From positions 28,830,001 to 28,894,000 of the forward strand of contig CM114271.1 of NCBI GenBank assembly GCA_050084515.1: a stretch of 64,000 bases of DNA, given 5' to 3'. The notes under the pieces were generated by a model. It was not told where the DNA came from. It searched no databases and worked only from the letters and a program-made list of their open reading frames with translations. Below, in pieces: positions 1 through 47,301 of this stretch (position 1 is the stretch's first letter; each line of letters starts with the position of its first letter). The stretch is from Blasia pusilla (Eukaryota). A program made the translations under genes and the position numbers.

Positions 1-1722
1 TACAACGTAATGAGAACCGTATGATCTTGTCCTCTCAAGACATATAACAAGGAGTCAGAATCACATACCCTAAAACCTAATTCTTGTAGGATATATGTAA
101 TCTTGTCATACCAAGCTCTTGGAGCTTGTTTAAGCTCGTATAGAGCTTTCTTCAACCTGCATACGCAAAATGGAAACTTGGGATGCTCATATCCAGATGG
201 TTGAGTCATATATACCTCCTCGTATAGATCTCCATTCAAGAAGACATTCTTGACGTCCATGTGATGTAATCTCCACTTCTTACTTATTACAACTGCATCC
301 ATTGTTCTTGTAGTCGCCATCTTTGCAACAGGTCTAAATGTTTCCTCATAATCAATGCCATATTGTCATGCATAGCCCTTAGCCATCAATCTCACTTTGT
401 ATTTGTTAATTGTACCATCTTCAATCCATTCGACTTTACTTGCAGCTTCTTCAAAACAGTTCGACTCCTGTTCTTGAAGGGTAGTCATCATGTATGTATG
501 ATGTGTTGCAAGGAAACTTTCATTTATGAATCTATGAACTGGATGTGTAACTCGATCTACAAAGTTTTTGTTGAGAGGTAGATGCTTCTGACACCTGACT
601 CGAGCTCTAACTAGTGTCAACAGACTCAATACGTACTCTTCCCATCCATGGACTCACAGATATAACTGATGAATCTAGGATTTCTCTGAATCCTGCACTA
701 GTACTTGGGGAAGTTGAAGGCAATGTCTGTTGATTTACAGTCATATTCTCCCCCTCAATAGACGAGTTTAGAGTTGGAATAGACTCAGATGGAGCATACC
801 ATGACTTTAGCTCATCAAAGACAACATCCTGACTAATAATAAGTTTCCTAGAGGATGGAATGTAGCACTTATACCCCTTAGTTCCATCAACATAGCCAAT
901 GAAGATACATCTTTCAAACTTGGGGTCTAATTTATGACGTCTCTCAGAAGGAACATGAGCATAACAAATACAACCAAATACTTTCAAGAAGGAAAAATGA
1001 GGTTTACTTCATGTGAAGACTTCAAATGGAGTTTTATCATGAACTTTTGCTGTTGGAGTTCGGTTGATTAAGAAGACTTCATATGCTACAGCCTCTGCCC
1101 AATACACCTTAGGCATGTTCTTCTCATTCAGTATAGCTCGTGCCGCTTCAGCAATATGTCGATTCTTCCTCTCAGCCCCTCCATTTTGTTGTGGAGTATA
1201 ACGGCAAGTCACTTGACGTTGGATGCCATTCTAATGTAAATAGTCATCAAACTCTGTTGAAAGATACTCTCCTCCTCCTTCACTACACAATTTCAGAATG
1301 TGTTCTCATGTCTGCTTCTCTACTAGAACTCTGAATGTTTGGAACACTGAGAATATCTCTTACTTAGATTTCTCAAAGTATACCCATATATACCTAGAGA
1401 AGTCATCAATAAATGAAACAAAGTATTGGCAACCACTAAGGCTATGTTGTGATGCTGTCCACATATCACTGTGGATCAACTCCAATATCCTGGATGCTCT
1501 TCTATCTTGCTTTGGGAAAGGAAATCTAGCTTGTTTTCCAAATTGGAAAGCATGACATATCTCTAATGTAGCAGGGATCGCTCATTTAGGCAGTCTTATT
1601 ACTATATTAGATGATGAAAGACTCTATAATCTTTGAAGATTCATATGTCCAATTCTTTTATGTCACACATTTAGATTTGTGACTTGTTGGCCGGTTTGAC
1701 CATACATTGTTGTTTGAATCTC

Positions 1723-2970
1723 TAATGTACAAGAGTTTACTGAGTTCGATCCCCTAGATGATCATTGTTTAGTGAAAAGAGAGTTTAAAATTACAATTCT
1801 CTGGCAATAGTTGTATTTAGGTGTGAATAATTTAGATTCAATATCTTATCAACGTATTCAAATATTTCTTAGTACCAAGGTTTCTTTTCTCAATTCTCTC
1901 TAGTGGAGTTGACATCACGCTCAAGTAGATTTCCCCTCGACATCAAGAAACCTCACAGAGATCTCAACAAGGAAGTTGGCTTTTCCTACTTTCAGAACTC
2001 AATCCGTCTTGGCAGGTTACTCTCTGTCAAACAGATTTCCTACAACTCCATGTTGATTATTCCATTAATGAGAAAGGTTCGCCTGATTCACTCTTCACTT
2101 TGCAGACCCAAAAAGAATGCTCAGACATAAGTATCGCACATCAGAATGAAGAAATGAGTGCTTTACTACTCCATCAAGAATGAGAAAGCTTCAAAGTGTA
2201 TACAAGCTTGAGAGGGTACTATTGCCTTGCTCGGACCATTCCTACAGCATAAGGACTTCGTGAAAGAATGATGATGATAACTACTTTCATGCTTCTTAAA
2301 TACTCTGTGAAGTAGAAGTGTTCCAAAGATTCGAAGTGTTCTTGATGAAGCTGGTGTCTGTTCAATATTTGTAACTATCTAGATCTATGGTACTCTTTTC
2401 TTTTCCTATGATCCCTATGAATCTGCTGAGCATAAGTGTACTAACTTCCTATTTGATACAAAAAGTCGCGCCTCTTCCTAATCTAACTGTTCTGACAATG
2501 TGTCGCTTGAAATCACTTTGAGTCTTAGCTTCGCTTTGCTGCGAAGTCTGAACCTCTTTTGCTTCACTTGAGGACGGAGCTCTTTCTCCTGATTTGAAGA
2601 CAAAGCGCTCCATTCTTCGCTCTTGTTCCACTTGCTTCGTTCTTCGTGCTTTGCTAAAGAGCGAAGTACTTCTTCATCATGCTTCGTTTGAGAGCGAAGC
2701 TCTTCATTAATAAGTTCGTAATAAGGCTTCGTTGTCTTTTCCAAGCTTCGTGCTAGGTCTTGAGACTTCGTTTATGTATTTTTCTCTCCTCTAAGGCAAA
2801 TCCTTGATTATCTACCTCTCTGCCTTGTCCTTGTCACTTTAATCTCACTCATTCTTCTCGATAATAATATATAATAATAACCATAATATCAAAATCATAG
2901 TGTATATACAAGAATTCTTTGAATAAAAAAATATAAATCTTCAAAAGTACAAAATTGTGGGTATCACACA
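1723..2970. mobile_element. Probable solo LTR inserted in the copia pol
   Basis: The copia frame (..KLYVSMLEI / EIQTTMYG..HKRIGH) is split by a 1.25-kb insert flanked by a 5-bp direct repeat ATCTC (1718-1722 and 2971-2975). The insert ends are TA..(probable TG>TA) and ..CA. Confidence 0.65.
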
Positions 2971-4846
2971 ATCTCTAGCATAGAAACATATAATTTGAAC
3001 ATTCTGCCATATCTAGTTCCTTTGGCTATCGTAGTCTGGTCATCCATTGTTTCAATGAAATAAACATCTGCGTTAAACTTCACTTGATAACCCTGTTCTA
3101 CTATCTGTCCTATAGAGATCAGATTTCTTGCATTGTAGGAACATAGAGAACATTTCCAAGAGCACAAAGACCATTTGATGTTATTGGAACTTTACTGGTA
3201 TGCGTGATATGATGTTGAGTGTCGTTTCCTCTGAGCACAATTGCAGGATCTTTCACCGGCTCTAGACTACTGAATCATTTAGCTTGTGAGGTCATATGAT
3301 TTGATGCACCGGAGTCAATGTACCGATCTGTTGTTGAGTCTTTCTTGACCATTGCTCCCATATGATGAGTCATGACCAAGAGATGCTTAGTTTGTGAATG
3401 TTGTTGTTCTTGGTACTGCTCTTGGTGTTGTTGCTCCACATAGTTTTGTTGCTGTAAGGCTCGTGTTCTCATATCTGCCTTCTTCTTGAATCAAAATTTT
3501 GCATAATGACCCTTTATCCCACAATAATTGCAAGATCTAGGGATCCTCTAGTGCTGACTTAAATCCCAACGGTTTCCATCATCATCACCTTGTGATTGTG
3601 TCAAGTATTAGTTCGTAGTTGATTGAGTAAGATTATATTGAGTGTCTCTTCCTCCATATGCTTGATATCCACCATGACCACGGAAGTTTCTACCACGACC
3701 TCTGCCTCTGTTTGTTCCATAACCTGCAAATAGCAAACTTTCTTGCACACTAGACGAGCTATCGCTGCCTACTAGGCGTATCTCTTCACTTATTAAAAAA
3801 TGGACTAACTCTTGAAAGGTTGAATACTTCTCTCTTATAGAAATAGAGGTCTCAAAGGACTTGTAATTCTTTGGAAGGCCTTGAAGAGGGAACAAAGTTA
3901 GATCATCATCTTCTACTGTCACTCCAATGCCATTCAACTAATCAACAATATGTTTGATACTCAAAATATAATCATTGATGCTCTACAATCCTTTCCTCGC
4001 TTCATTCAATTGTTGTTTCAATTGAAATTTTTGGCCTTTGTAGATGTTTGGAACATCTTTTCCAATGCATCCTAGGCCTCCTTCAAAATATCAACATCTT
4101 GAATGTGACCTATCATTGGCAAACTGATCGTTATTGAAATGTAGTGGATTACTTGGCTTGCGCGTTTGTTCTAGGCGCAAACATTCAAGTCTGTTGAATC
4201 ACTTTCTAGCTTGGTCTCATCACTTGTGACAAGCTCCCATAGTGCTTGACCCATGAGAAATTATTTCATGCGAAACTTCCAGACATTGTAATTCTTCTTA
4301 TCTAGCTTCTCGCCTGTGATTGCTGTTGAGGAATATTCTATGACAAACGATTTCACTCACAAAATGTAATTTCAGGCTCTCCTACTGCTCCAATTGAAGC
4401 ATAGATCACTCCTACATAGAAATCGACCTGAAATTTGCCAAAATTGATCATTTGTATGAAAGAACTAGTCGAAATTGGCATGTAGAGAGCAAACTGCACA
4501 ACTTTTCTTCACTAATTGATCTTTCCTACACTGAAATTGCTACTGCATGGGCTGGAGTATGTCAAAATTGAGTGATTTTGGGTGCGTTGGAAAGCTCTCA
4601 ATGAGCTCTACAAGAAAACTAGAATAAGCCTTTTGCAATGGCATCGTTGTTGCAGACCCTGATGGCTAAATCGACCAGGAAAGCCCTAAAAAATGCCTCC
4701 AAAGTTTTATCACCATCAAGGCTCCACCTAAAATCTGCACCCACTGAGCTCTGAACAAAATTTCCCTCTCCCAAACTGAAATTGTGTCTTCTCTTGCCTC
4801 TCTTCTCTCCTTAAACATCAAGAATTTCAAGTGATGTTCCCCTATC

Positions 4847-4858
4847 GCTCTGATACCA
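4847..4858 (-). promoter_or_regulatory. Copia primer-binding site (tRNA-iMet)
   Basis: Minus strand reads ..CA|TGGTATCAGAGC directly after the LTR end. A TATATAA box lies on the minus strand at ~4972-4978. Confidence 0.9.
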
Positions 4859-4993
4859 TGTGGAAAACTGCTAAAGAAGCATAATTGATGGGAAACGGCT
4901 CTCATACTCACACACCACCATGAAGAAAAATTTTTTAATGAGAGAATGAGTGGAGACTGGTCCCCTTCTCAATTATATAGGGTATGTACAAGC

Positions 4994-5106
4994 AACCCTA
5001 ATCCTAATCCTAATCCTAATCCTAATCCCAATCTCAATCCTAATCCTAATCCTAATCCCAACCCTAACCCTAATCCTAATCTTAACCCTAACCCTAACTA
5101 ACCCTA
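4994..5106 (+). repeat. Telomere-like hexamer array (CCTAAT/CCCTAA)n, about 19 units
   Basis: Directly visible: aaccctaatcctaatcctaat...aaccctaaccctaa. Confidence 0.9.
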
Positions 5107-5159
5107 GTTAAGATAATCATGCTTAACTGACTAACCAAGATTAAGCTTCCCTACTTTGT

Positions 5160-6154
5160 GTGAGTACAAAATGTAGCAGTTCAGGTGTCTCATGAGCTTG
5201 ACTATAACTCAATCTTCAATACCTTTGAGGGAGAGGATGGTGTCTTTGCTTCACAACAAGCTATTTTGCCTATTTATTTGGAGTGGTGGAACTTTCCTCT
5301 ATAGTCGCATCTGCTCTCGCAGCCTTTTTGGGGAGCTGGGCGTTGGTAGCACCGATTATGGCTTCAAGGTTTCTCCAAGCAGATACACCTATCTTGATGG
5401 ATCATATCGCCCATGTAGAGGAGGGAGACTTGTTATTTCAACATCAACTGAGATCTACACAAGCTCTTCTTCCTCTTGCTACACAAGCAATTCTAAGCCC
5501 TTTTAGTCAACTAATTACGGAAGGGCTTAATCGACTTCAAGAGCATATCTCCAAGAATTTGCATCAAATGAACTTTTCCAACATTCTCTCCGAGGCATCC
5601 TCTGACGCTAATCAAGCTCGTCTACGTTCATGTGCGGGTACCACAACGGGTGCGTGGCTTACTGCAAATCCTGTTATTCTTCCATTTCATCTTCCTCGAA
5701 GTATATTCTCGATAGCTTTGTGGTTACGTCTTGGACTTCCCCATACTTCTTTCTTAGGTGTGCCAAATTGTGTATGCGGGGATCCCATTGATACCAATGA
5801 TATCCATATTTTTTGACGTGCACATGGTGGAGAACGAACGGCCACACATGATGTCATTAGAGAGGCGGTAGCATTGGTGGTTCGTACTGCAAGATACACC
5901 GTTGGGCAAGAGCAACTCTATGTCCTACCTTCAACCACACAAGCAACCTCTCGTCGAAGAGTGGATCTTGTTATGTCTCGAGGTGGATTCCGGACACTAG
6001 GTGATATGGTGCTTGCTGATCCAACACGTTCTGACTTGGTGTGTCGAGCCGCACATACCAAAGGTTTGGCGACCGAAGCAGCAACAAGAATCAAGGAGTT
6101 AAGTTACGTTGTGAGACATGCGACTGATGGATTATTCCTTTGCAATAGAAGTAT
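5160..6154 (+). mobile_element. CRE-clade-like non-LTR retrotransposon fragment (post-RT region, zinc finger and restriction-like endonuclease), left part
   Basis: Translated motifs QQAILPI, AAFLGSW, ARLRSCAG..GAWL, LRLGLP, CVCGDPID...H..(C)..GGER...HD, RRVDL, D...DPT and K...Y match the RLE C-terminus of CRE/Cnl1-like elements. Interrupted by the gypsy insertion at 6155. Confidence 0.75.
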
Positions 6155-6670
6155 TGCCACGTCTTTTAGAATAGGTCGTGGAGATATAGTAGAGCACCTT
6201 CGTGAGTAGTGGAGGACACGCTCAGTAGGTCGAGGATGACCTGATGAGGCCCCGAGAAACCTGAGAGAGCAGGTTTCCCCTTCGTTTCGACTCATTTGGA
6301 GCCATATTGAGGAACTTACTATTTTAGGTAAGTATTATTTTGAGTATATGATCGACTTTCTATTTTTGGTAAGTGATAATTGACCTCCTACATTAGGTCA
6401 AGAGCCAAGGAGGTGACTTGGGAGAATAGGTTACCATGGAGAGAGCTTGGGAGAGGGGAGGGGTATACCTCAAGGAGAGAGAGCTTGAGAGCTCATTCTC
6501 TCTTTGTTGAACCTCTTGGCATGAGGCGGCGGAACTATGGTCCCTTGCCTTGTGAGTGTAACCCAAGCCTCTCATTAGGAGAGTGGGTTTGGTTTGACAT
6601 GAGAGAGAGTGCAGACCTTTGAGAACTATGGTGTGAGATGGTGTAGAGAGAGATTGGATCTTACTTTACA
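6155..6670 (+). repeat. Terminal repeat A1 of copy 1
   Basis: Highly similar to 15979-16492; ends ..cttactttaCA. Confidence 0.9.
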
Positions 6671-7249
6671 AAGAGAGAATGAGAGAGTGAGAGAGCTTCA
6701 TAGGGGAGCTCGCTGGTCACTCGCTGTTTTTCCAGGTTGGGGACCGTGCTTCCCATTCAACGGCTCATGGGAGTGCTCACCGGAGCAAGGGCTGCTTTGA
6801 TTGTTCTTTGCATTTGCCGATTTTTCGTGTGGAAGAGTGGCGCGCGAAAACGTAGCCCAAGTTCTGATAGGGATTGATTATGGGGGCAGGTTGCCCCATG
6901 TCGGTGCTCTCGGGAGCACCATGTAGCTTGCTGATTTGTATTTTTATAGGTTTTACATTTTGGTTGGGAGAAATCAGCACGGAAGCGTTGCCCAATTTTG
7001 TGTAGGAGAAAGAGACATTGGGCATTACGACAGTCCCCGTCAATTTTTACTGGAATGTCCAATTCCAAAAAATTTGACGTTGTTGTAGATCGTAAAGCTA
7101 TGCATGTTGTGCAACAAACAATGCGCAATTTAGAGTTGCGAGTAAAAAGTTATGGTCAATATTGCAAAACTGCCATTGCTAGGCGATTTTTAGGGTTAAA
7201 TTGTTCAAACCCTAAACCAGCGGCCATGCCGGCGGCAGCCGTCGCCGCA

Positions 7250-7355
7250 CCGTCACCGATCAATGGTCAACCATCACTATGGATGGTCAACCATCACCAT
7301 CAACGGTCCGTCGTCACCATCAACGGTCTACCGTCACTGTCAACGGTCCACCGTC
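7250..7355 (+). repeat. Degenerate ~20-bp tandem repeat (ccatcaccatcaacggtcnn), about 5 units, in the gypsy 5' leader
   Basis: Directly visible. Confidence 0.7.
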
Positions 7356-8146
7356 CACCGGCCACCGTCGGCCGTTGCCGTTGCCCAGCGTTGCTCAGAG
7401 CTGCATTCGGCCGTTTTCCACCCTTTGGTTGCCATTGCCGCCATTACGAAGTGGAGGGTCTTCCACGACCATCGTTGATTCTCTGACTTGCGCCGCCACC
7501 ACGTACTTTGGTTTGGCCGCCACCGTCATCGCAGTTTCGTCATCAACCAGTGATGATAGATGACCTCCAGTTATGGTGTTTGAGTTTTGATTTCATGTTG
7601 CTATGTTGTGATTGGTAGCCTCCCGACGACGATCAAGTACCGTGCCTTGACGCCCGTAGCTGCAACGCGCCGCCGATTGCCGCGCCGTGCCGCTCGTGGC
7701 CGCACAACACCGTCGATCGCGGAGCCGCACCGTCATTGTGGAGCAGAGTGTGGGTTTATTTTTTATTGAGGAGGATATGCCACCGAGTGCCGCATCCCAC
7801 CATCGAGGGCCATGCCGTTCGTAGCTGTTTTGTGCCGCCTCCAATGCCGCACCGTTTCGCTGGAACCGCACTGTCCATCAAGGATTTTTAAGCATCGTCA
7901 GTACGGGAGGAGTATGACTTGTTGATTGGAGGAGTTGTCTCCACAACCAAGTTGGGGTCGAGATTTGCAGTTGCTGAGGAGCGACATCAACATGTGTTCA
8001 GGTTACCCGTTTTGGTCCTTTACCCTACACGTGTGAGGGATTCTGGGATTTTGGTAGTTTATTTGGGGATATTGGGTGTGTGGATGCTGAGAGCATCATT
8101 TATGTATGTGGTTTAGGGGACATAGACCTGTGTGGGATGTCTGGAG

Positions 8147-8405
8147 TTGAGGGTAGGTTGTCGATGAGATGATAGCCTGGTCGATTTGCCGCACCACGCT
8201 GCTTATTGCCGCACGTTACACGTCTCCGGGAGGGAGAGTGTAGATCGAGTGCCGCATGTTTGGGATGAGTGATTGAGGGTAGGTTGTCGATGAGATGATA
8301 GCCTGGTCAATTTGCCGCACCACCCCGCTTGTTGCCGCACGTTACACGTCTCAGGGAGGGAGAGTGTAGATCGAGTGCCGCATGTTTGGGATGAGTGATT
8401 GAGGG
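8147..8405 (+). repeat. 126-bp tandem duplication upstream of gag
   Basis: Units start at 8147 and 8273, with a partial third at 8399 (ttgaggg..). Confidence 0.9.
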
Positions 8406-11319
8406 ATTACTTGCGAGGTTGAAAGTGATCGTGTGAGATGCGTGTAGAGAAGTTTGTGCACGAGGCACGAGGGCCATCAGGGCGTCCTTTCAGGATTTTG
8501 AGAGGCAAGGTAGTGGACCCGAGAATAGCTTTGGAGGGTTTGCCCGGAGTGGTGCGAGGTTTCGAGAGTCTCCACGTGAGAGACCATCTCGATCTCCTTC
8601 TGTGTCGTCTTCAGACGAGGGGGAGTGTGTAGAAGAGTTTGTGAGCACATCGCCACACATTGTGAGTGGTCCTATTAGGTGCACGTACGAGATGGACGAT
8701 CGGGGTAGAGGACCATGTAGGTTTTCAGGTGTAGTAGGCACGATTGAGTTGCACAATTTCATAGCAGAGTTTAGGAGTTGGTGCGACTCCTAGCGGGCCA
8801 CGAACTCTAGAGAGTTCAACCCTTTTACAGCATGGAACGGTATGTTCCAACATTTAGAGGGGACGCCCATGGACAATTACCATGAGTTCTCTCAAAGATA
8901 TGCACGTGAGATCGAGGCGTGGAGGCTCTACTATGATCCACATTATGTGTCATGGATGGAGCTGTTCCCAGATGAGGAGGAGAAGTCAAGAGAGGCTACT
9001 TCCTCTTCCACTAGTGATGTTTTAGGAGGGGTCACTCGTACGGGAGCAATTGGACCGTCTCGTCGGGTTCGTCCCAAGTTCAACCCTGTGGTTGAGTTCT
9101 TTGTTGAGTTGAGGGCGAGCTACCAGGGGATACGGATGGAGAAGTTGCGGAGCATCCACGACTTCCAGAGGCGCCCGGGTGAGAGTTTGTGTGAGGCTTA
9201 CACTCGCTTCCACCGATTGATCAACGTCACTCAGGGGGTGACAGAGGCTCAGGCTATCCAGTCATGGTACGCGATGCTGGACCGGATCCTGCGGACACAG
9301 GTGCGGGAGGGGGTGCTTCTTATGAACATCTCCCCTACGTTGAGAAATGTTTTTAGGACTGCCAAGAACATTGAGCGCAACATGGCGGAGGAGAGCGTAA
9401 CCACCATGGGTTCTGGGCGAGAGCAATCACGATTGACTGCACTACCTGTGCAGTAACGTGGACTTAGAGATAGGTCAACTGTGGCACCACGAGCTCAAGG
9501 AGGATGCCGGGAGGCCGTGCCACAGAAACCTGCGCCTTCATATGCGGCTCAGCAAAAGCCGCCTTCTATTACTTGTTGGTCATGTGGTGGAGCCCATCAT
9601 CAACGCGATTGCACTTGTCAGGGTCATGGACGTGTGTCTCAGCATGGAGGAGGAGATGGTGCTGCACTAGGAGGTTATCAGTGTGACTATTGTCAGAGGT
9701 ATGGTCATACACGCGCGAGGTGTTTCACTTTACATCCTGAGTTACGTCCGGACCGAGGGCCACAGAGAGCACCACAGCGAGTAGCCGGTCCGAGTGGGCT
9801 ACAGATCGTGCACCAGGTGGTCCCGTTGGGAGACAAGGAGCTGGAGTTTCCCAATAGGGTCGTGGAGCTGCCCGTGGAGGAGGTAGAGTCCTTCCACCTA
9901 GACGCGTCGAGGGAGATGCCGGGCGTGAGGCTAGGATGGAGCAGCCAGAGATATGGAGGATCCTGGTTGGATGTGCGGGGTTGCCCACATGGAGGCCGCC
10001 GCAGTTGTGACGGGTGGAGCAGCCGCAGAGTTGGATCCACAGCAAGGGGAAGCCAAGAAATAGACTAGACTTCCTCAATCTTTCACGTTGTCCGAGGCGA
10101 TAAGGACCCCATCGATGGGTCTGGATTAGAGTTCCTGAAGATTTGGTGACGTTGTTGGTGTGCAAGCACAAAGGGCGATGGGAGAAGCGAGTGCAACGAC
10201 TCCTGTTGTTGATGCTCAGGAGGGGCATGTGTCGAGCACGTTGTTGGGGGCGGCCACCATTGTGTACCGCGCTCCTTTATTTTCTGCGTCTGATGTTATG
10301 ACGTAGGGGGGTACGCCCGCCGAGGCTTTTCGGCTGGCCGCTACGCTATGTGAGTGTGGAGTTGGAGTTCCTGCATCACGTTCAGAGGTGATTGCAGAGG
10401 AGATGATGGACCTGCCCTTGGAGTGGATACTCGGGCTGTCCACGTCAGATTCATGGTAGGCTGTGGTTGCTAGGATGGCGGAGATGCCCGCTAGACCCGC
10501 GATAGAGTGTGCCATGGCTTCTCCTGGTGTTGTGTTTTTTGGTTAACCGAGGAGAGGTCTTCCAATTGGTGAGTCCCGGAGGTAGAGCTTTTAGTCCGCA
10601 GCACATTTTGTTGGATTTAGGAGCGCAACCCTTGATGTTGGGAAAAGCGTCATTCAAAGGATTGGGCTTGACGAGAGCCGATGTGGAGCGTTGTCCATTG
10701 CGGATACAGACATCCTTGGGTGGAGCGAGTACCACATAGTATATCACCCGACAGGAGGTCGTGGTGAGGATTTGCCCGGGACATCCTACAGATGAGTCTG
10801 TGGTGCGAGCCAAGGCAATAGTGACTAATGTAGAGTCCTACGATGTCTTGGTTGGTGGAGCAGTGTTATACCCGATGGGGTTTTCCCTGGATTACTGGGC
10901 AGAGTCAACGTCCTACAGACCAGGATGGCAGTCAATGATGGATGACTTAGCTCATTACCCGTTCGATTCACATGTGCAGTGATCGAGCAACGGCCAGGAG
11001 TGATGGCGACCTTAGTAGCATTTAGCAGTGCCATTACTTTGCCTAGTGATTTGATTGAGGGACATGTCCATGCAGAAGATACTCCCGTTCCTGACATTTC
11101 TATGGAGACGAGTGTTATGGTAGTCGCATCATTCCGTGGAGGAGAGGTGCCGTTGTGGGGCTCGACTAAGGAGCTTCAACGATTGGCAGATGAGCACGTG
11201 CAAACCGCATGGAGCAAGGTGTTTGCACCGGAGCATGACGGGTCTGAGGAACCCGAGGTAGCAGGGAGTGCTACCATGATACCCTTGGATACCACACCCA
11301 TTGTGTGGTGTACCCCGGA

Positions 11320-12270
11320 GGAGGGTATTCGAGTGTTAGATCTCTTTGGAGGAATTAGCATCGCGTTAGCTGCTGTTTTGCAAGCAGGAATGCGAGTACA
11401 ATAGTACCTATATGTGGAGAGTGATGATGTTGCGAGGCGCATCTCATTACAACATGTGGCGCAGTTACGCCTACGTTTTCCTGACTTATTGTTTGCGTCC
11501 GTGATACAGGGATACCAGAGTTCCCTACCAAGGGATATTTCGTTGTTGGGGGCGCAGGACTTACAGCGGGTAGGGACCATTGATTTGGTCATTTCTGGTT
11601 GGCCATGTCAGGGCCAATCGAGTGCTGGATAAGGCAGCGGGTTGGCTGATACTCGATCCATGTTGTTTTGGGAGATGTTGAGGGTCTTATGGCAGTTGTA
11701 GGAGCACCACTCTCGTTCTCCAGCCTACATTCTGGAGAATGTGCCCATCTTAGGAGACTCCAGGTCACGGGTCGTAACGAGTGCTCATCAAGTGTGTGCC
11801 TAGATCGGCCCAACAATGTTCTTGGATGTGGCGAGTATAGGTTCTAGAGCCCATCGCCCCCGTTTATGGTGGACCAACTTGGTGCCCCATACGATGTTAT
11901 GGAGGGCGTATGCGAGAGTGGAGTGCCCCTCCCATTTGTTAGTGGATTCCATTCTGAATGCAGGTCGTCGATCACAGGCAGTGAGGCACAATGATCCACC
12001 ACCGTTGACTGTGGTGAACAGGGTAGGCAGGCCGTGGGCAGCCTTTCCCACGTTTGTGAGTTTTCCCGCTTCCTATGCATACAAGAAGGCCCGTCCTGGC
12101 TTGGTTTGGGATGACCAGGTTCAGAGGTTGGTGGAGCCCAACGCCAACGAGAGAGAGTGGGCAATGGGATTCCCCCCAGGAGTGACGGCAATCCCGTCAG
12201 TATCAGAGGCATCACGACGCCATGTCTTGGGTCAGGCGATGGACCTGAACTATTTGACATGGATCTTTAG
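11320..12270 (+). pseudogene. DNMT3-like C5-cytosine methyltransferase domain within Pol
   Basis: Motif I VLDLFGG (11333-11353), motif IV GWPCQ (PCQ 11603-11611), motif VI ENV (11735-11743), motif VIII AHRPRLWWTNL (11849-11881), motif IX ERE.AMGFP, motif X RRHVLGQAMD. Same reading frame as RT, broken only by in-frame stops. Confidence 0.9.
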
Positions 12271-15200
12271 CTTGGGAGTGGCTAAGCAACATCGGATGAG
12301 ATCGCGACAGATCACAGCGGTTGTGTTGGTGAGCCCCATGCCTACCGAGACGGTGGAGGCACTGGCTAGGGGCGAGACCCGAGGAGATCGACACACCAAG
12401 GGAGATCTAGAGAGACACCCTTGGACTTCTTGGGATGTTTTGCAGGTACGCCAGGAGATGATAGCCACAACATCGAGCGTGGTTCCGGGCACTGCATGTG
12501 GAGGAGATCAGAGTTTGCAGTTGGCTATAGGAGAGCGGTCGAGTGTTGTTGTTCGAGACGGGGTTGCACCATAGCAACCACCGATATCCGCATCGGAGAG
12601 TCCTACCGTAGTCACGATGGAGACTTGGGAGCCAAATATGGGCCCTAAGTTGATAGTAGGAGATCGGTGCCGAATACATCCGTTCCTCAGGAGTTATAGG
12701 AGCTGCTTTGCGTTTAGCATGGAGGATTTGGGTACGCTGAAGGGACCGGGGATCCGCATTGAGTTGTCGAGTGATACGCCGATCTTCCGACGACCCTACA
12801 TGTACAGTGATATGGAGAGGGCTCCGATTCAGAGTCGAAGCCAGGACTTGGTTGGAGCAGGACTAGTGGAGATGTCGCATGGGGAGTATGCATCTACCAC
12901 TGTCATGCCCGCCAAGAAGGATGGGCATGGTAATTGGACGCATAGGCGGATGTGTGGGGATTACCGATCTATCAATCGACAGACAAAGTCCGATAGGTAT
13001 GCCATGCCCACCCCTGAGGAGATCTTTGATGCGATTCGTCGTGCAAAGGTTTTCAGTTCATTGGATTTGCGAGCCAGATACCATCAGCTGCCTATCAGAT
13101 TGGAGGACAGGCACAAGACGGCATTTTGGGGCATCGATCCTCATGGGAAGGATTGTTTGTACCAATGGCGGTTCTTACCATTTGGGTTAAAGAACGCCCC
13201 GGCTGAGTTTTAGAGGGTCATGGATAGGATCTTGGCTGGTCTGGATTTTGGTAGGTGCTATATTGATGACATGGTAGACTTTAGCGCCACGATTGAGGAG
13301 CATGAGCGACATCTAAAGGAGGTGTTTGGAAGATTGCAATTACATGGGCTGAAGCTACATCCAGACAAGTGCAAGTTCTTCTACGACCAGATTGAGTATT
13401 CGGGTCATACAACCTAGGGGGCCTTGGTGTTTAGCAGACAAAAGTAGAGGCTATCTCACGCATTCCACGCCCTACAGATGTGAGCCGTGTTCACGCATTC
13501 ATGCGATTGGCGAACTTCTATCGGCGGTACGTCAAGGGATTCAGTTCGATTGCAAAGCCGTTGACCTTGCTGACCAACGTGGATCACGAGTGGCACTAGG
13601 GGGATGAGCAGGAGCGAGCATTTCAGTTGCTCAAAGATATGTTGATGTTCGCGCCCATCTTGAGGAGACCAATCAAGGGGCGTCCTTTCCAGTTGCACAC
13701 AGATTGGAGCATGTTGGGGCTTGAAGCGGTGCCCACCCAGTATGATGATGAGGGTAGAGAGTTTGTGGTGGCTTACGCTAGCCGCTCAAACAATGCTGCA
13801 AGGCAAAGTATAGCTCGTATGAGGGTGAGTGCTTGGCTGTGGTGTGGGTTGTCGCGCATTTCAGGTATTACTTATTCGGCAATCCCTTTACCATCATCAC
13901 TGATCATCAACCACTGAAGTGGTTGATGGAGTCCGACAAGCTTACACGGAAGCTTGCGAGATGGGCTCTGTTGTTGCAGGAATATGATTTTCAGGTGGTA
14001 CATAGACTTGGGAGGCTCAACCAGGATGTAGATGGGTTGAGTCGTAACCCATGCCCAAGTCAACGAGATGCAACTAGAGCTTGATGGCATGGAGAGAGTG
14101 ATGAGAAGTCAATGCAAGGATGGCACGCGTCAGCCTATTTAGGCATGTTGGCTATGGAGAGCCAGAGTATGGAGATTTCAATGGCGAGGTCTAGTGAAGA
14201 GTCCTTGGAACCCGAGGCCAGTGAGGAGACGAGAGATGGCCGAGATATTCATGATGATGGAGTAGTCTTGGAGTACCTTCGGACTGGCAGCATTGCGAGC
14301 ACCGTGGGTGCTAGAGAGCAAGATCGGATCCTGCAGCGGGCCAGACGGTTCCGTTGGGAGGGGACACATGTTTCAAGGGTTTGGGAGGATGGCAGAGTAC
14401 GCATAGTGCCGCATCCTTCGCAGAGAGCACAACTAGTGCAGCATGCCCACGAGGAGTTGGGTCACTTTGGGGTGAAGCGGACGTACAACTTGCTTCAGAT
14501 TCAGTATTGGTGGCGAGGCATGCAGACTGACGTTCAGCAGTTTATTGCGAGGTGCATGGTGTGTGATCGGATCTGAGCATCGTTCAATGCTCCGACTCCA
14601 CAGTTGCATCTATTACCGATCATGGGCTTAGGGTATAGATGGAGTTTGGATTTTGCAGGACCTTTGCCTTTGACGGAGCGTCACAGTCGTTATGTGTTGG
14701 TGATGGTTGAGCACTTCTCGAAGTGGATCGAGTTGGTTACATTGCCTGATAAAGCGAGTGAGGGAGTAGCTCATGCCTTCCTTGATAGAGTGCTGAGTCA
14801 TTATGGCGCACCGACTGAGGTGTTGACAGACCAGGGTACCGAGTTTTGCGGTGAGTTCCACGCCTTGTGTGATTAGGCATTGATCGACCATCGCATAACT
14901 TCGCGAGATCATCCTAAGGCGGATGGATTAGAGGAGAGAGTTGTGTAGACAGTGAAGAGGGGTTTACGCAAGTATGGCTTGCAGAGAGGTCACCTAGGAG
15001 ATTGGGACCTTCAGTTGCCCCGGTTGGCGATAGGATACAGATTCAGCAGGCAAGCATCCTTAGCGTCTTTTTCACCGTACTTGCTACTTTATGGCCGAGA
15101 GCTAGATTTACCTATGGCCATTCGTTGAGATGATGGTGAGGTGCTGGACCTTGATGACCCAGATGTATGGATGCGAGCATGTTCTTAGAGGGCTGAGTTG

Positions 15201-15525: not shown

Positions 15526-15663
15526 TGTATGTTGTGTGGTTCTGCCCGTGGTGCGACCACGATGCTAGTCTGTGATGGATATTCGAGAGGTTGGCATATG
15601 GCATGTCTGATGCCACCTCTCACTAGGGTTCCTCGGAGACGATGGATGTGTCCCAAATGTACA
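15526..15663 (+). other. PHD finger at the integrase C-terminus (copy 1)
   Basis: CMLC..MLVCDG(Y)SRGWHMACLMPPL..VP...WMCPKC fits C4-H-C3 with the conserved W; the fourth Cys has decayed to Tyr here but is intact in copy 2. Confidence 0.88.
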
Positions 15664-15978: not shown

Positions 15979-16602
15979 TGTCCCGTCTTTTAGGATAGAT
16001 CGGTGAGATGTAGTAGAGCGCCTTCGTGAGTAGTGGAGGACACACTCAGTAGGTCGCAGATGACTTGCTGAGGCCCCGAGAAACCTGAGAGAGAAGGTTT
16101 TCCCTTCATTTCGGCTGATTTGGAGCCATATTGAGGAACTTACTATTTAAGGTAAGTACCATTTTGAATATATGATCGACTTCCTATTTTTGGTAAGTAA
16201 CCCTTGACCTCCTACATCAGGTCAAGAGCCAAGGAGGTGACTTGGGAGAATAGGTTACCATGGAGAGAGCTTGAGAGAGGGGAGGGGTATACCTCAAGGA
16301 GAGAGAGCTTGAGAGTTCATTCTCTCTTTGTTGAACCTCTTGGCATGAGGCGGTGGAGTTATGGTCCCTTGTCTTGTGAGTATAACCCAAGCCTCTCATT
16401 AGGAGAGTGGGTTTGGTTTGACATGAGAGAGAGTGCAGACCTTTGAGAACTATGGTGTGAGATGGTATAGAGAGAGATTGGATCTTACTTTATTGGAGGT
16501 ATTTTCGTACTTCTTGTCTCGTTGTTTGGATGCCATGAGTTAGCATGGGATCGTGTGTGTTTGTGTGTGTGTTCCGTGACAGCGATGTGTATGTGCACGA
16601 CA
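15979..16602 (+). repeat. A2 (15979-16492) fused to B2 (16492-16602)
   Basis: A2 matches A1 and B2 matches B1. Separated from B1 by the 2-bp spacer AC. Confidence 0.9.
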
Positions 16603-21944: not shown

Positions 21945-22502
21945 TTAGATTTTTCCATTCCCCACTGCTTGATCTTGCATCTCTTCCGCTGGTCTCTGTT
22001 TTTTTTCTTCCACTGTATCCTGGAGCATCTGTGGAGCGTCTTTCAAAGAAACCTCTGCATCCACAATTTTCTCCGTTTCCAATACAGGTCCATAATAATT
22101 TACATTAGCTTTCATGCACTCTGTCAAGAAGCCAGTAACAAGAGCGCACTTTTCGACCATGACGCTGCTACCTTCTTTCTCTGCTTCATCAATACAATTT
22201 TCCCATGCACTGAAGCTCTTTCCACACGGTCCTAATTTCATAAAGACACAGAAGGGGCACTCGTCGTCTTTCTTTTCGTTTTCATGATTCTGGTCATGAT
22301 ATTCCTGGAATTGGTCCTTGTTTTTATTTTCTTGTACAGAGTCGGTCTTCTCTTCGAGTTGAAGCGTAAGATTTTCTGGCACACCCGTATCGTTTTCCTT
22401 TCCTTTCGAATTCAAGTCTTCCTCTATGACATTATTTTTGGAATATTTGACTTCCAAAGACACGCTAATATCATCATGACTTTCTTCGTCGCCTGGTTTC
22501 AT
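21945..22502 (-). CDS. GCK-domain (twin-Cys, Mia40/CHCH-like) protein
   Basis: Acidic N-terminus, then ECPFCVFMKLGPCGKSFSAWENC..KC...TGFLTECMKAN..YY. A splice acceptor just upstream (~22519) suggests a further 5' exon. Confidence 0.8.
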   Translation of the reverse strand: MKPGDEESHDDISVSLEVKYSKNNVIEEDLNSKGKENDTGVPENLTLQLEEKTDSVQENKNKDQFQEYHDQNHENEKKDDECPFCVFMKLGPCGKSFSAWENCIDEAEKEGSSVMVEKCALVTGFLTECMKANVNYYGPVLETEKIVDAEVSLKDAPQMLQDTVEEKKQRPAEEMQDQAVGNGKI

Positions 22503-25083
22503 ATTGATTATCCTTGATCTAAAGAAAAAAGTTTTTTTCAGTATCTACGAGATTGATACATGTTTATAAAACGTACCCTTAAAGGTAACTAAGGGGAGGT
22601 TCCTGCACCACCCTCTCCTTTCATCGATCCCTGCATATATCACGCAGAGAGGTCGCATACACCTTATTTCTACTTGCACATGCGAGTGAATCTGAATTTC
22701 CAGTCTTCAGTGGTGAAAAAGATCCAGCGCATGGATTTCATTTCAATCCAAAGATAACGAAAAACTGCTCGTCGATCTGGGGACATTCGCTGAAGTGCTG
22801 CATGGAGTAATTGAAGGAGGCAGCTGCCCGTCGACTTTAAGATGGTATTGATTGTACCTGTCGATAAATGTCAACAATGGTAAACCACGCAAATCCAGTC
22901 ATGCAGTTGAAATCTTGACTGGCCCGCGCCCCATTCTATCGCACACATCCTTCGCTATACACACCGCCTTAAAGATCGTGAAGTTGTCAAATTCCAATTC
23001 CTCGAAGATCTTGTTGAACCAGAAATTGACAAAGTCATTGGCAAAGTCTCGGATCCCCGATCGGACGCCGTGCAGGTGAGCGTTGAACCAACCGAATCAT
23101 ATCCATCAGCCGATTGCGGTTCTTCCGCACGCTGGTTTCGGCCGACCAACCAACTGCTCTTCCTGGACTTGTATAAACGAACTACTCGACATCATCTCCG
23201 CCAAACACAACCAAACCTCCCGGACGTGAAATGAATAGACGGATGACAGAGAAACTCGAAAACAAACGACTGCGTCCTTGCAGAGTTTCTTGCATCAATA
23301 TCGATTCGAGTCGCTCGCTCTCTCCTCCCTTCCGCTTTCCACATTAGAATTCGCACAATCACGCCACTTTCGTTCGACTTCCGTATGCACGGATGAAACG
23401 AATTTGGCAGTCAGTCACTACATAAACATATAAGCGAGGGCGAGGTACCAGACCCCGCCCAGACCGTTTTCCCCAAACGTGGACTCACCTCGGGTTAGCT
23501 TAACTAGAGCTAATCGGATGAGGCATAGGAGGGAAAGGGTCCGTCTGAGCGACCGTCCCCTTCTAGACGGTGTACGAAACACACCGTCAGTTTCATAACG
23601 GTGACCATAACAGAGATCCATTTGATTCTATGAGTTTGAATCTTGCTCCTGATGGTAGCGTCACCTCAGTTATTACATTCAAAGCGTATGGCGTTCGATC
23701 CGAGCTCAGCGTTGAAGAGATTGTGAAGAGTGTCCAGGGATTATTGTTTAATCATTATCAAACAAAACTGCTAGAAATCAAATTATCAAATGGTATAGCT
23801 ATGGTATCGATTCGTACAATTTTCATCCCGTATAAAAGCATCGCCTTCGATCCGACCTCAACGTTGACCAAATGTACTATAATCTTGTCTTTAGTCAACT
23901 TTCGGACACTCATACCCTAGGATTTCGCGAAAAGGTTCAGCAATTGTTATTCTATAATTTTCTCAGGTACCTAAGAACCCGCTAGTAATCAAACTATCAA
24001 ATGACACGGCTCCGATATCGATTCGTTAGTAGATTCATCCCGTTTGGCCTTCGATTCAAACTTGACGTTCGTAGCGCACTCTCTCATCTCGATTATTTGG
24101 AATGCTGCGACGAGTATTTCCTAGAAATTCGACTAGCGCACTCTCCAATTATTATTCCCCAATTACGCTATCACACAAATCTGCGAAAAAGGTCTCAACC
24201 TTTCCAGCATCAAATGGCATGGCTATGGCATCGTTGCTGTAAGGAATGGCTTGTCGCACAACAAGGATGGAAAGCACTCAACCAGTACACGGTTTGAGAT
24301 AAGGTCTCTAATGAAGAGGGATCTACCGTACACGCCATTGGAAGCGTCGATAACTTGAAAATATTCCATGGCGTCGTCCTGTCTTGTCGGTAAATTCCCG
24401 AGGAGTTGTCTTCTTTCTAGTGAGACCTCGCAGGCATCCCATCTACACAGCCGAGGATTTAAGGTATGTCCACATCAGTATTAGATCCAATCATTAACCA
24501 TATCTGAAGTCTTGGAACATTCGTCTATGGTGGACGAAAACTGCGTGGAAATCTCGGAAGTGTTCAGTGGGTGGGGATCTCTGGATGAGAGGTATGTGGA
24601 CCTAATTCACCATAGCGTCTTCAAAATTCGAAATCGTTTAATACAGTTGGAATCCAAGGAAACTAACTTGTAACTTCTTTCAATCTGTGAGCTGATCAGG
24701 GCGCATAAGGGCTTCCGGGATAGAATCACTATTGTCAACTGGAGGGAAGGAAATTGCGGGTCTAGGGATTATGATGGATGTTGGTTCCGTAGGTCACGAC
24801 AGGAGCTAGCGAGAATGGTACGCAGTTGAGAAGGAGCTATTTGAATGCTATGAAGCTGTCATGTGCATGACGGGATACGCAACGAAAAATGTATTAATGT
24901 GTGCAGGTGGAATCCACGATGTGTTGGTGAGAGTTGGCTTGGTCGATACTCGCCAATTTCCGAAGTGAATCCAATGATCCGCTCTTGAACTTCAGAATGA
25001 TCTACTTGTGGCGTTTATGCTGTTCAGCAGTAGTTTCACCTCGTAGAGCAGTTTGTTGGACATTGGCTCATGACGGCCTCTTC

Positions 25084-34000: not shown

Positions 34001-34745
34001 TGTCGTGTGCTTACTCTCCTTGAGCGTAAATCTTTAGTGTTGCGGAAACGTGCGTTCAGTAGGACATACTCTCAATGTTGATCTACATCCAAACACACTC
34101 ACATTAGTCTGGTCTGGGTCAATGAGTACTCTAACTCACCGAGTTCTCGACTCGGCCTCTCATCAAGCTCAACCTTCCTAATTTCTCGCTTTACAACACA
34201 AGCAAGTCTCTTGAGACTTAGGACAAATTTTTTGGTTGGTTCAGGAACCTCAAATGGCGTTTGCACGCCTAGAGGTTCCAACTATCCAATGGACCTCCAA
34301 TGAGTCCCTAATCGAGACTCACTAAAAGGAGTCGCGGATTGGAATCCAAGTGCGGCTTTCGGAATCCACTCCCTTGGATCATGTTTGGGTTTCTAGTCCC
34401 AACACCAAACTCCCGTTCCCTTCCTTGCCCTTGAGCCGCCCTTTGGCGCCCAAAGTGAGGTTTGGGTCCCAAGAATCCTTAGAAAAACTCCTCCTTACTA
34501 GAACTTCTAGAGATCACCACCCTCCCCCTAACTTTGGGGAAAAGAAGGTCGGGCCCCTCATTTTGGCCCTCGATTCAACTTCCCATACAGTCATTTCTGG
34601 CCAATATCTTAGCTTTTTTCTTTTGTGTTTGCTTTGATCTTTAGTGCGTTGAAACCGGATTTGCATAAGCTTTCCAACGCCACCTTATTTGTCTCAAACA
34701 CATATCGAGACTAAACGTTATGGTCCAAAACACAATCAAAACCCC
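34001..34745 (-). mobile_element. LTR (3' portion) of a conventional LTR-retrotransposon family, split by copy 2
   Basis: Reverse-complement similarity to the solo LTR 38285-39252 (e.g. aatctttagtgttgcggaa.cgtgcgttcagtagg); continues at 43461. The left edge is approximate. Confidence 0.7.
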
Positions 34746-45585: not shown

Positions 45586-47301
45586 TGACACGCCGATCTT
45601 CCGACGACCCTATAGGTACAGTGATATGGGGAGGGCTCTGATTCAGAGTAGGAGCTAGGACTTGGTTGGAGCAGGACTAGTAGAGATATCGCATAGAGAT
45701 TATGCATCTTCCACTGTCATGCCCTCCAAGAAGGATGTACATGGCTACTCGACGGACAGACGGATGTGTGGAGATTACCGACCTATCAATCGGTAGACAA
45801 AGTCCGATAGGTATGCCCTGAGGAGATCTTTGATGCTATTAGGCATGCAAAAGTCTTCAGTTCGTTAGATCTTTGAGCCAAATACTATCAACTACCTATT
45901 TGATTGGAGGATAGACATAAGACGGCATTTTGGGGCATCGATCCTCACGAGAACGATTGCTTGTACCATTGGCGGTTCTTACCATTTGGGTTAAAGAATG
46001 CCCCGGTTGAGTTTTAGAGGGTCATGGATAGGATCTTGGCAGGTCTGGATTTTGCTAGGTGTTATATTGATGACATCGTAGTCTTTATCGCCACGATTGA
46101 GGAGCATGAACGACATCTAGAGGAGATTTTTCGACGATTGCAGTAACATGGGCTGAAGCTACATCCAGGCAAGTACAAGTTCTTCTATGACCAGATTGAG
46201 TACCTAGGTCATACCATATACCCAGGTGGTCTTGGTCTGCAGCGGACAAAGATAGAGGCTATTTCACGTATTCCATGCCCTACACATGTGAGTCAAGTTC
46301 GTGCATTCATGGGATTGGCGACCTTGTATCTACGGTACGTGATAGGTTTCAGTTAGATTGCGAACCCGCTAACCTTGCTGACCAAGGTGGATCAAGAGTG
46401 CCACTGGGAGGTTGAGCAAGAGAGAACATTTCAGTTGCTCAAGGACATATTGACGTCCGCACCCATACTGAGGAGACCGATCAGGGGCGTCCTTTCCAAT
46501 TGCATACCGGTTGGAGCATGTTGGGGCTTGGAGCCGTGCTCACCCAACATGACTATGATGGTAGACACTTGGTGGTAGCTTATGCTAGTTGCTCGAACAA
46601 TGTTGTAGAGGCAAAGTATAGCTCATATGAGGGTGAGTGCTTGGCTGTAGTGTGGGTTGTTGCACATTTTAGGTGTTATCTATTCGGAAACCCCTTTACC
46701 ATTATTGCTGATCATCAGCCACTAAAGTGGTTGATGGAGTCTGACAAGCTTACAGGAAAGCTTGCGAGGTGGGCTCTTTTGTTGCAGGAGTATGATTTCT
46801 AGGTGATGCATAGATGTGGGAAGCTCAACCAAGATGCAGATGGTTTGAGCCGTAACCCATGCCCGAGTCACCGAGATGGGACTAGAGCTCGATGGCATGG
46901 AGAGAGTGATGAGGAGTTGATGCTAGGATGGCGCACGTCAGCCTATTAAGGCTTGTTGGCTATGGAGAGCCAGATTGCTGAGACTTCGATAGCGAGGTCT
47001 GATGGAGAGTCCTTAGATCTAGAGGTCGGTGAGGAGACAACCGATGGCCGAGATATTCACGACGACGGAGTAGTCTTGGAGTACCTGCGTACTTGCAACG
47101 TCGCGAGCACAGTGGGTGCTAGAGACCGAGATCAGATCCTATAGCGAGTCAGAGAGTTTGGGTGGGAGGAGACACATGTGTTGCGAGTGTGGGAGGATGG
47201 TAGAGTACGTGTAGTGCCTCATCCTTCACAGAGAGCACGTTTGGTGCGTCATGCCCATGAGGAGTTGGGGCATTTTGGAGTAAAGCGGACATATAGCTTG
47301 T
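45586..47301 (+). pseudogene. RT-RNaseH-partial integrase fragment closely similar to copy 1
   Basis: Colinear with ~12775-14490 (TPIFRRPY.., YIDD, YSSYEGEC, HAHEELGHFG). Confidence 0.85.

Follow-up and report, generated by a model that had tools for sequence, protein, structure and literature searches.

Analysis of a 64,000-nucleotide stretch of the Blasia pusilla genome (assembly GCA_050084515.1, contig CM114271.1, forward-strand positions 28,830,001 to 28,894,000; hereafter the window, with positions counted from its first letter) revealed a Ty3/gypsy long terminal repeat (LTR) retrotransposon of 10.3 kb on the plus strand that has a C5 cytosine methyltransferase (DNMT) domain between its protease and its reverse transcriptase (RT). 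We refer to this element as copy 1. Its 5' LTR (6160-6668) and 3' LTR (15984-16492) are direct repeats of 509 bp and 93.3% identity, with 34 of 509 positions differing (6.7%), and 25 of those 34 differences are transitions. Judged from this divergence the insertion is old, its absolute age depending on the substitution rate. A search at the edges of the LTRs found no convincing TG..CA termini, target-site duplication, primer-binding site or polypurine tract in this old copy. The LTR pair and the order protease, RT, RNase H and integrase place copy 1 among the Ty3/gypsy elements, and the methyltransferase stretch is, with good confidence, the decayed DNMT3-type domain of an element organized as gag-protease-DNMT, a UAG stop, and then RT-RNase H-integrase-PHD.

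All of the coding features of copy 1 lie on the plus strand. Between the 5' LTR and gag is a 2-kb leader with two tandem repeats, one with a 20-bp unit present 5.3 times (7249-7355) and one with a 126-bp unit present 2.1 times with 96% matches (8147-8405). A decayed gag with a zinc-knuckle-like part occupies 8707-9744, where tblastn aligned residues 9-354 of a Marchantia protein (P0125) at 46% identity and Pfam gave a weak Retrotrans_gag match. It is followed by the protease region at 10530-10961 (residues 610-754 of the same protein, 52% identity), which is in frame 3, a different frame from the DNMT; the tblastn alignments place the change of frame near 10934-10961. The DNMT domain, with motifs I, IV, VI, VIII, IX and X, spans 11255-12325 and is succeeded by a poorly conserved tail (12326-12571) and by an in-frame UAG with the codons CAA CCA after it (12572-12580), which is probably a programmed leaky stop ending the gag-protease-DNMT frame. 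The RT (12611-13411) is in the DNMT frame, was also delineated by tblastn with a second relative (P0130), and has stops of its own at 13211 and 13415. The RNase H (13420-14084; RT_RNaseH_2, 55 bits) is frame-shifted, with tblastn matches in frames 1 and 3, and the integrase (14085-14876) comprises an H2C2 zinc domain (Integrase_H2C2, 64.6 bits) and an rve core (46.7 bits). The integrase reading frame has a PHD finger (15526-15663; PF00628, 37.1 bits) at its C-terminal end.

The original prediction, made from the letters alone, was that the major C5 methyltransferase motifs lie in canonical order between protease and RT, in the frame of the RT and interrupted only by in-frame stops, and each part of this was borne out. 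Frame 2 of the plus strand runs from 10946 to 13417 with no frameshift and spans both the DNMT motifs and the RT: motif I (VLDLFGG) is at 11333-11353, motif IV (GWPCQG) at 11597-11614, motif VI (ILENVP) at 11729-11746, motif VIII (RAHRPRLWWTNL) at 11846-11881, the motif IX/X part at 12149-12175 (EREWAMGFP) and 12224-12247 (VLGQAMDL), and the YIDD of the RT downstream at 13259-13270. When this frame was read through with an X for each stop, the HMMER search that had been proposed as a check returned PF00145 at E 1.2e-9 and 38.5 bits, above the cut-off of 22 bits, together with RVT_1 at 94.4 bits. With both profiles matched in one read-through frame, the methyltransferase domain is therefore not a chance resemblance. 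The catalytic cysteine and glutamate are retained, and the motif order is I, IV (PC), VI (ENV), VIII (RxR), IX and X.

The domain in copy 1 is nevertheless decayed. Four in-frame stops within it are private to this copy when it is compared with an alignment of 20 diverse family members (alignment A1, from which a profile was also made). These are a TAG at 11402-11404 (R, K or G in the other rows), a TAA at 11630-11632 just past the PCQ catalytic loop (R, H or N), a TAG at 11699-11701 (Q) and a TAG at 11801-11803 (W, I or L). The polyprotein of copy 1 has in addition at least five frame changes from gag to integrase. These lesions, together with LTRs that have diverged by 6.7%, indicate that copy 1 is dead and cannot produce the enzyme, which, for this copy, counts against an active methyltransferase.

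A second and more distant relative, copy 2, lies at 36740-43084 on the plus strand and is ~74% identical to copy 1 at the nucleotide level from RT to integrase, with internal deletions and a foreign insert. It had been claimed to have the same domain at the same position. The position is indeed the same, and its DNMT remnant (39816-40444) retains tblastn-alignable pieces of the motif I part (39816-40184) and of the part beyond motif VIII (40241-40444), but a deletion has removed ~130 residues that include motifs IV, VI and VIII, so that the open reading frame (ORF) joins ...ALPSHI directly to DSILDTGR.... The protease region of copy 2 is split by 38350-39240, an inverted relative (74%) of 34025-34724 that represents another repeat family, nested or adjoining. 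A third fragment of the family, on the plus strand at 45586-47300, comprises RT and RNase H only and is 84% identical to 12772-14492. An open DNMT frame capable of encoding an enzyme is thus absent from copies 1 and 2; it is present in relatives fetched from other sources (L001, L002, L007, L021 and L022; L-numbers denote the 80 fetched relative loci and P-numbers the stored relative proteins).

Several lines of comparison identify the kind of METHYLTRANSFERASE as DNMT3-like. In a phmmer search of the PDB with the single sequence, the best matches were DNMT3A (1.8e-9), DNMT3C (1.4e-7) and DNMT3B (2e-6), followed by entry 4onj (2.5e-4) and by DRM2 and M.HhaI (6e-3). The A1 profile gave the same ranking, with DNMT3A at 89 bits, DNMT3C at 84 and DNMT3B at 83, ahead of 4onj (55), DRM2 (41), DNMT2 (38) and M.HhaI (33), and no DNMT1 or chromomethylase occurred among the 55 PDB sequences that this profile matched at E<=0.01. 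Entry 4onj is titled just "DNA methyltransferase" in the database and is presumably the tobacco DRM. The alignment with DNMT3A is collinear, with one stretch from motif I to motif VIII and a second for motifs IX-X, and the motif order is thus not permuted, unlike that of DRM. It also bears out the likeness of motif VIII to DNMT3 that had been pointed out from the letters. An AlphaFold model of the copy 1 domain, made with X at the stops and with the A1 alignment, had a pLDDT of 83.6 and a pTM of 0.86, and in a Foldseek search with this model DNMT3A, DNMT3B and DNMT3C were all that appeared among the matches listed, with E-values from 8.8e-18 and TM-scores by target of 0.75-0.81 for catalytic-domain entries. 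A structure search of the ESM Atlas with the relative from Calypogeia found as nearest clusters proteins that combine ADD and PWWP with PF00145. A feature search of the same Atlas put phage methylase clusters at ranks 2-3; we take these as no more than leads, which the profile and fold rankings contradict.

The element domain shares with animal DNMT3A, DNMT3B and DNMT3C the collinear motifs I-X, a motif VIII of the form AHRxRxxWxNL and an ER..GFP...R..LG tail, and these enzymes are its best matches by single sequence, profile and predicted fold, which is why we assign it to the DNMT3-like class. There are points that weigh against this assignment. No PWWP or ADD was matched by Pfam in the copy 1 read-through or in the first ORF of the intact L021, so that the domain lacks the adjoining modules of the animal enzymes. 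The catalytic loop reads PCQ where DNMT3A has PCN, and the stretch between motifs VIII and IX is longer. The class is moreover assigned by ranking among solved structures only.

The methyltransferase is not peculiar to the window. A word-indexed search for relatives yielded 154 of comparable length and 35 that are longer, with 62-64% identity for the best, and 14 of the 35 longer relatives are annotated Marchantia polymorpha proteins with the domain in the same place. The other named hosts were M. paleacea, Riccia sorocarpa, Calypogeia fissa, Sphagnum fallax, S. troendelagicum and S. tenellum. The domain also occupies the same place in Calypogeia, in Sphagnum and in dozens of metagenome loci, so that the original suggestion of a family trait holds well beyond the two copies from which it was made. 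In an exhaustive profile search, 18861 representatives scored at E<=1e-3, and 559 clusters did so at E<=1e-30. The 150 matches listed all scored at least 275 bits and were all members of the family, many of them 1000-3456 residues long, and the named "pol" proteins among them were from Scenedesmus sp., Haematococcus lacustris and Closterium sp. These comparisons make the domain an old and conserved component of an element family found in chlorophytes, Closterium, liverworts and Sphagnum mosses.

One relative from these searches (P0021) is a DNA cytosine methyltransferase that NCBI assigns to a metagenome-assembled genome (MAG) of "Candidatus Obscuribacterales", on a contig of 2410 nt. It groups next to the bryophyte clade, and its 90% cluster includes a 1359-aa member, which equals the first ORF of L021 in length. 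A bacterial origin of the domain, which the label might suggest, was rejected, as the protein falls inside the clade of eukaryotic elements and is probably from a mis-binned eukaryotic contig.

Two architectures were found in the family. In type A, seen in the window, Marchantia, L021, P0193 and Closterium P0250, the order is gag-CCHC, protease, DNMT, RT, RNase H, integrase and PHD. In type B, seen in Scenedesmus P0230 and in P0150, P0179, P0201 and P0194, the DNMT follows RT and RNase H and precedes integrase and PHD. Both were confirmed by Pfam on eight long proteins, and by the same means the PHD finger was found in the second ORF of L021 and in P0150, P0179, P0201, P0194 and P0230. Among 346 stored domain proteins, which are a sample of best matches and no census, the DNMT lay after RT/RNase H or directly before integrase in 126, before RT in 20 and alone in 200. 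In an IQ-TREE phylogeny of 52 domains, the 26 type B rows made up one side of a branch (SH-aLRT 98), and copy 1 grouped with Marchantia and Calypogeia in a clade of 10 rows (support 100); a FastTree phylogeny of 199 rows likewise needed only a single change of architecture. Since one such change fits the trees, a single acquisition of the domain, followed by a later move within pol, is probable; the trees are unrooted and give no direction for the move. The proteins P0345, P0348, P0250 and P0372 show that the DNMT also precedes RT in Closterium sp. (Zygnematophyceae) and in single ORFs of 2318-2374 aa that have no stop between the two. Because type A frames without the stop exist on the Closterium side, the relocation of the DNMT seems to be older than the stop that we describe next.

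The TAG at 12572-12574 lies ~90 codons past the DNMT and, with the following CAA CCA, matches the strict UAG CAR YYA motif. In contrast to the four private stops, it has counterparts throughout the closer relatives: across the window and the 80 fetched loci, the homologous codon was a stop in 39 of 39 alignable places (30 TAG and 9 TAA), and the codon after it was CAA or CAG in 38 of the 39. Past this stop the RT continues in the DNMT frame in the window and in L001, L002, L005, L007, L012, L014 and L015. Public gene models from Marchantia and Calypogeia (P0125, P0126 and P0122) end at the stop, and two others (P0130 and P0149) jump over it. In L021, a metagenome contig (1-9317), one frame extends from 976 to 8229 with a sole stop, TAG CAG TTA, at 5083. 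The first of the two ORFs (1359 aa) contains the protease and the DNMT (PF00145, 51.1 bits), and the second (1047 aa) contains RT, RNase H, integrase and PHD. There are no LTRs within this contig, and L021 is an apparently intact member of the family, of the kind that the original prediction had proposed to look for.

According to the portions available of PMC3542737, leaky stops of the tobamovirus type share the consensus UAG CAR YYA, which also acts on UAA. This consensus, the conservation of the stop in all 39 places, its being the lone stop of the L021 frame and the gene models that end at it are our reasons for reading it as programmed. It is very likely that in intact relatives the UAG past the DNMT is a leaky stop of the UAG-CAR-YYA kind, so that translation would yield mainly a Gag-protease-DNMT protein, and occasional readthrough would give RT, RNase H, integrase and PHD. 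The resemblance to the tobamovirus signal, as that source gives it, lies in the UAG CAA CCA of the window, in CAG TTA, CAA CTA and CAA CCA in other lineages and in the UAA of some copies. The differences are that the commonest lineage mostly has CAA CCC and that the stop of the element parts protease-DNMT from RT, not two parts of a replicase.

Some of the data weigh against a programmed stop. Only six of the 39 (the window, L001, L021, L022, L072 and L074) fit the strict CAR-YYA hexamer, while 31 have CAA CCC, one has CAA CTC and one has TAA CCC. The 39 also include many near-duplicates, contributed by a few related metagenome series, and so represent only a handful of independent lineages. 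The stop is also not universal to the architecture, as the single ORFs P0345 and P0348 on the Closterium side have none between DNMT and RT. These ORFs, and the several other TAG stops in copy 1, could be taken to mean that the TAG at 12572 is one more inactivating lesion in a family that makes a single gag-pol polyprotein. We consider this improbable, given that the homologous codon is a stop in all 39 places, in lineages whose synonymous sites are saturated, and that it is the sole stop in 7.2 kb of L021, and the gene models of Marchantia and Calypogeia end there independently of one another.

Evidence of transcription came from three RNA-seq runs of one organism label, whose runs contain 27-31% of the sampled words. 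The element drew 319, 352 and 304 reads, of which only 8, 2 and 12 were at least 99% alike; nearly all were 95-99% alike. This is why the reads are attributed to related copies and not to copy 1 itself. They piled up mostly in the LTR (6354-6707, depth 31-52) and in an integrase segment (14496-14849, depth 14-21), with the first mate on the minus strand, and probably reflect low-level sense transcription of those copies. Depth in the DNMT bins (11310-12371) was 0-1.2, a point against the role that we propose below for the domain.

The retention of the catalytic PCQ, ENV and RxR motifs across the family leads us to predict that in intact relatives the domain is likely to be a working de novo DNA methyltransferase. 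Such relatives would translate a Gag-protease-DNMT precursor from which the protease of the element would release the DNMT, and the released enzyme could then methylate newly reverse-transcribed element cDNA or new insertions. The PHD finger, which occupies the position of the chromodomain in chromoviruses, could steer integration. The idea of self-methylation, and a result on activity in yeast, have been presented for other retrotransposon DNMTs in the portions available of PMC5890265. By analogy, we tentatively suggest that the likeliest substrate is the element's own cDNA or its fresh insertions, as a self-imposed silencing that limits harm to the host, with the PHD finger directing integration through histone tails; taken as a whole, this proposal is somewhat more doubtful than not.

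The closest competitor to self-methylation is that an active enzyme acts on host chromatin, either the surroundings of the integration site or rival transposons, in concert with the PHD finger, and so provides a tolerated niche or an input into the host methylome. A histone-reading module would be available for this purpose, since a PHD finger is found at the integrase C-terminus throughout the family, and the leaky stop, if real, would supply the DNMT in Gag-like amounts; accidental action on the host genome is also raised in PMC5890265, in the portions available. However, the DNMT and the PHD finger would belong to separate translation products and would not have to cooperate, and we regard this alternative as possible but rather unlikely.

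Less probable still is that the domain is a pseudo-enzyme, its fold being retained for DNA or S-adenosylmethionine binding or for particle assembly with no methyl transfer. In the 20 diverse rows of A1, W116, P117, Q119 and E161 were invariant, and the catalytic residue C118 and the AHR.R..WTN run were at least 90% conserved. A GWPCQ loop, an ENV motif and an AHR.R motif kept in this way are unlike what is expected of a pseudo-enzyme, which makes it an unlikely explanation. Methylation of RNA by a DNMT2-like enzyme, for example of the tRNA primer or the genomic RNA, has in its favor that the A1 profile matched DNMT2/tRNA methyltransferase chains at 38 bits, yet with DNMT3 chains at 83-89 bits and all of the Foldseek matches listed falling to DNMT3 we consider it highly improbable.

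Selection on the domain bears on the weakest alternative, a host gene caught in the element. Between copy 1 and L001, L002 and L005, nonsynonymous divergence (dN) in the DNMT was 0.28-0.33 with synonymous differences (pS) at 0.73-0.83, which is saturated, and the ratio of nonsynonymous to synonymous divergence (omega) was nominally 0.10-0.17 between lineages where computable, with synonymous divergence (dS) again saturated. In the same comparisons dN was 0.15-0.37 in the RT, and in the tail of 70-90 codons past the DNMT it was 0.70-0.85 (0.6-0.85 for 12326-12571), with omega ~0.6. Within the young family L002-L015, omega was 0.33-1.1, as expected from decay after insertion. The proposed dN/dS test therefore gave a divided answer, with constraint between lineages and none that is clear within the young family, and the fact that selection is visible only in deep, saturated comparisons weighs against our interpretation. 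At that depth the sequence comparisons indicate long-standing selection to retain the domain, equal in strength to that on the RT. The case that had been named as refuting the prediction, a recently captured or interrupted host DNMT3 gene that is limited to these copies and evolves neutrally, would account for the four stops and the copy 2 deletion as neutral decay of both copies, but it is excluded for practical purposes by a constraint like that on the RT and unlike that on the adjoining linker, by the same position and frame of the domain across many hosts and loci and by the 559 clusters at E<=1e-30.

Other features of the window were also noted. On the minus strand, 51617-53503 contains a gene for a pectin methylesterase that includes a PMEI pro-region (PF04043, 70.9 bits; PF01095, 79 and 292 bits). 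It consists of two contiguous ORFs in one frame, separated by a lone in-frame stop (52373-52375) at position 83 of the Pectinesterase profile, which could be due to a pseudogene, a sequencing error or something else. A minus-strand ORF at 21945-22544 with a GCK domain (PF07802, 81 bits) is a probable host gene exon. Because of the pectin methylesterase with its PMEI pro-region, and because the nearest named relatives of the element are from liverworts and Sphagnum, we place the host among the land plants, probably the bryophytes, in agreement with the earlier proposal that the lineage is present in land plants. The observed/expected CpG ratio was 0.65-0.75 in the element, 1.04 in the neighboring gene and 0.47-0.64 in the flanks. 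CpG depletion as a sign of methylation of the element was set aside as too unspecific given the flank values.

The kind of element described here is known; the comparisons that follow are with the portions available of each cited source. KnitGypsy-Dnmt3 of Klebsormidium nitens, published by de Mendoza et al. in 2018 (PMC5890265), has a non-rearranged DNMT3-like domain in a gypsy polyprotein with the catalytic residues kept and a Ka/Ks below 0.2 between copies; its copies are methylated and silent in the host, and it was termed an independent acquisition in the K. nitens lineage. The Blasia element is likewise a Ty3/gypsy polyprotein with a DNMT3-like coding domain. It differs in having a plain direct LTR pair, as opposed to a DIRS-like repeat arrangement, and in its land-plant host and its relatives in liverworts, Sphagnum, Closterium and chlorophytes. 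Its DNMT comes after the protease and before RT, with the conserved UAG downstream of it, and the integrase is followed by a PHD finger. No Klebsormidium protein occurred among the named matches of our searches for relatives. SymbioDIRS-Dnmt3 and SymbioLINE-Dnmt of Symbiodinium (PMC5890265) are also retrotransposon-encoded DNMTs, and the DIRS elements too have two domain orders, but these elements are of the tyrosine recombinase or LINE class and inhabit another host kingdom.

EpiLTRs and DAM-LTRs (bioRxiv 10.64898/2026.05.21.726589) resemble the Blasia element as LTR elements that combine a methyltransferase with a chromatin reader. They differ in their modules, which are an adenine methyltransferase, a chromodomain and, at the 3' end of pol, a DNMT described as the sister of DNMT4; those of the Blasia element are a DNMT3-like domain and a PHD finger. 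Chromoviruses, as treated in the same preprint, also have a histone reader fused to the C-terminus of the integrase, in their case a chromodomain as opposed to PHD (PF00628). That preprint mentions "streptophytes (Gypsy-DNMT3)" by citation alone. In the available portions of the literature, including 10.1101/363937, PMC11982613, PMC12344493 and PMC11244446, there was no report of a gypsy DNMT in bryophytes or land plants, and supplements may list bryophyte copies. The same portions held no report of a family spread over green algae and bryophytes, of a DNMT-before-RT layout, of a conserved leaky stop or of the PHD finger. The land-plant members, the architecture and the stop signal were thus not found in print, and the sequences themselves are public and auto-annotated.

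Copy 1 is an ordinary dead specimen, and the interest of these data lies in the family to which it belongs. Retrotransposon cytosine methyltransferases have so far been those of dinoflagellates and one charophyte, read as separate, lineage-limited acquisitions, and the evidence now points wider. The gypsy-borne DNMT3-like family reaches the tractable Marchantia polymorpha, where it has gone unremarked in public gene models. Bryophyte annotations also count such retrotransposon copies as "DNMT3" genes, which inflates the totals, and one copy has been filed under a bacterial MAG. The leaky-stop layout predicts that the DNMT would be a major product of the element, and the PHD finger would be a second chromatin module. 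The question of how a transposon benefits from carrying the enzyme that usually silences it could thereby be put to the test in a model plant.

Overall, our data are compatible with a broader hypothesis, which we put forward as possible but, in its entirety, doubtful. Green plants from chlorophytes to mosses may harbor an old and large gypsy clade with its own de novo DNMT3-type enzyme and a PHD finger. In the branch of Closterium and the bryophytes the enzyme would have moved to a place before the RT and would then have been put into the Gag-protease product by a leaky UAG, that is, in capsid-like amounts, and intact members (L021 and possibly Marchantia copies) would be active. If this is true, part of the de novo methylation of transposons in land plants would be written by the transposons themselves.

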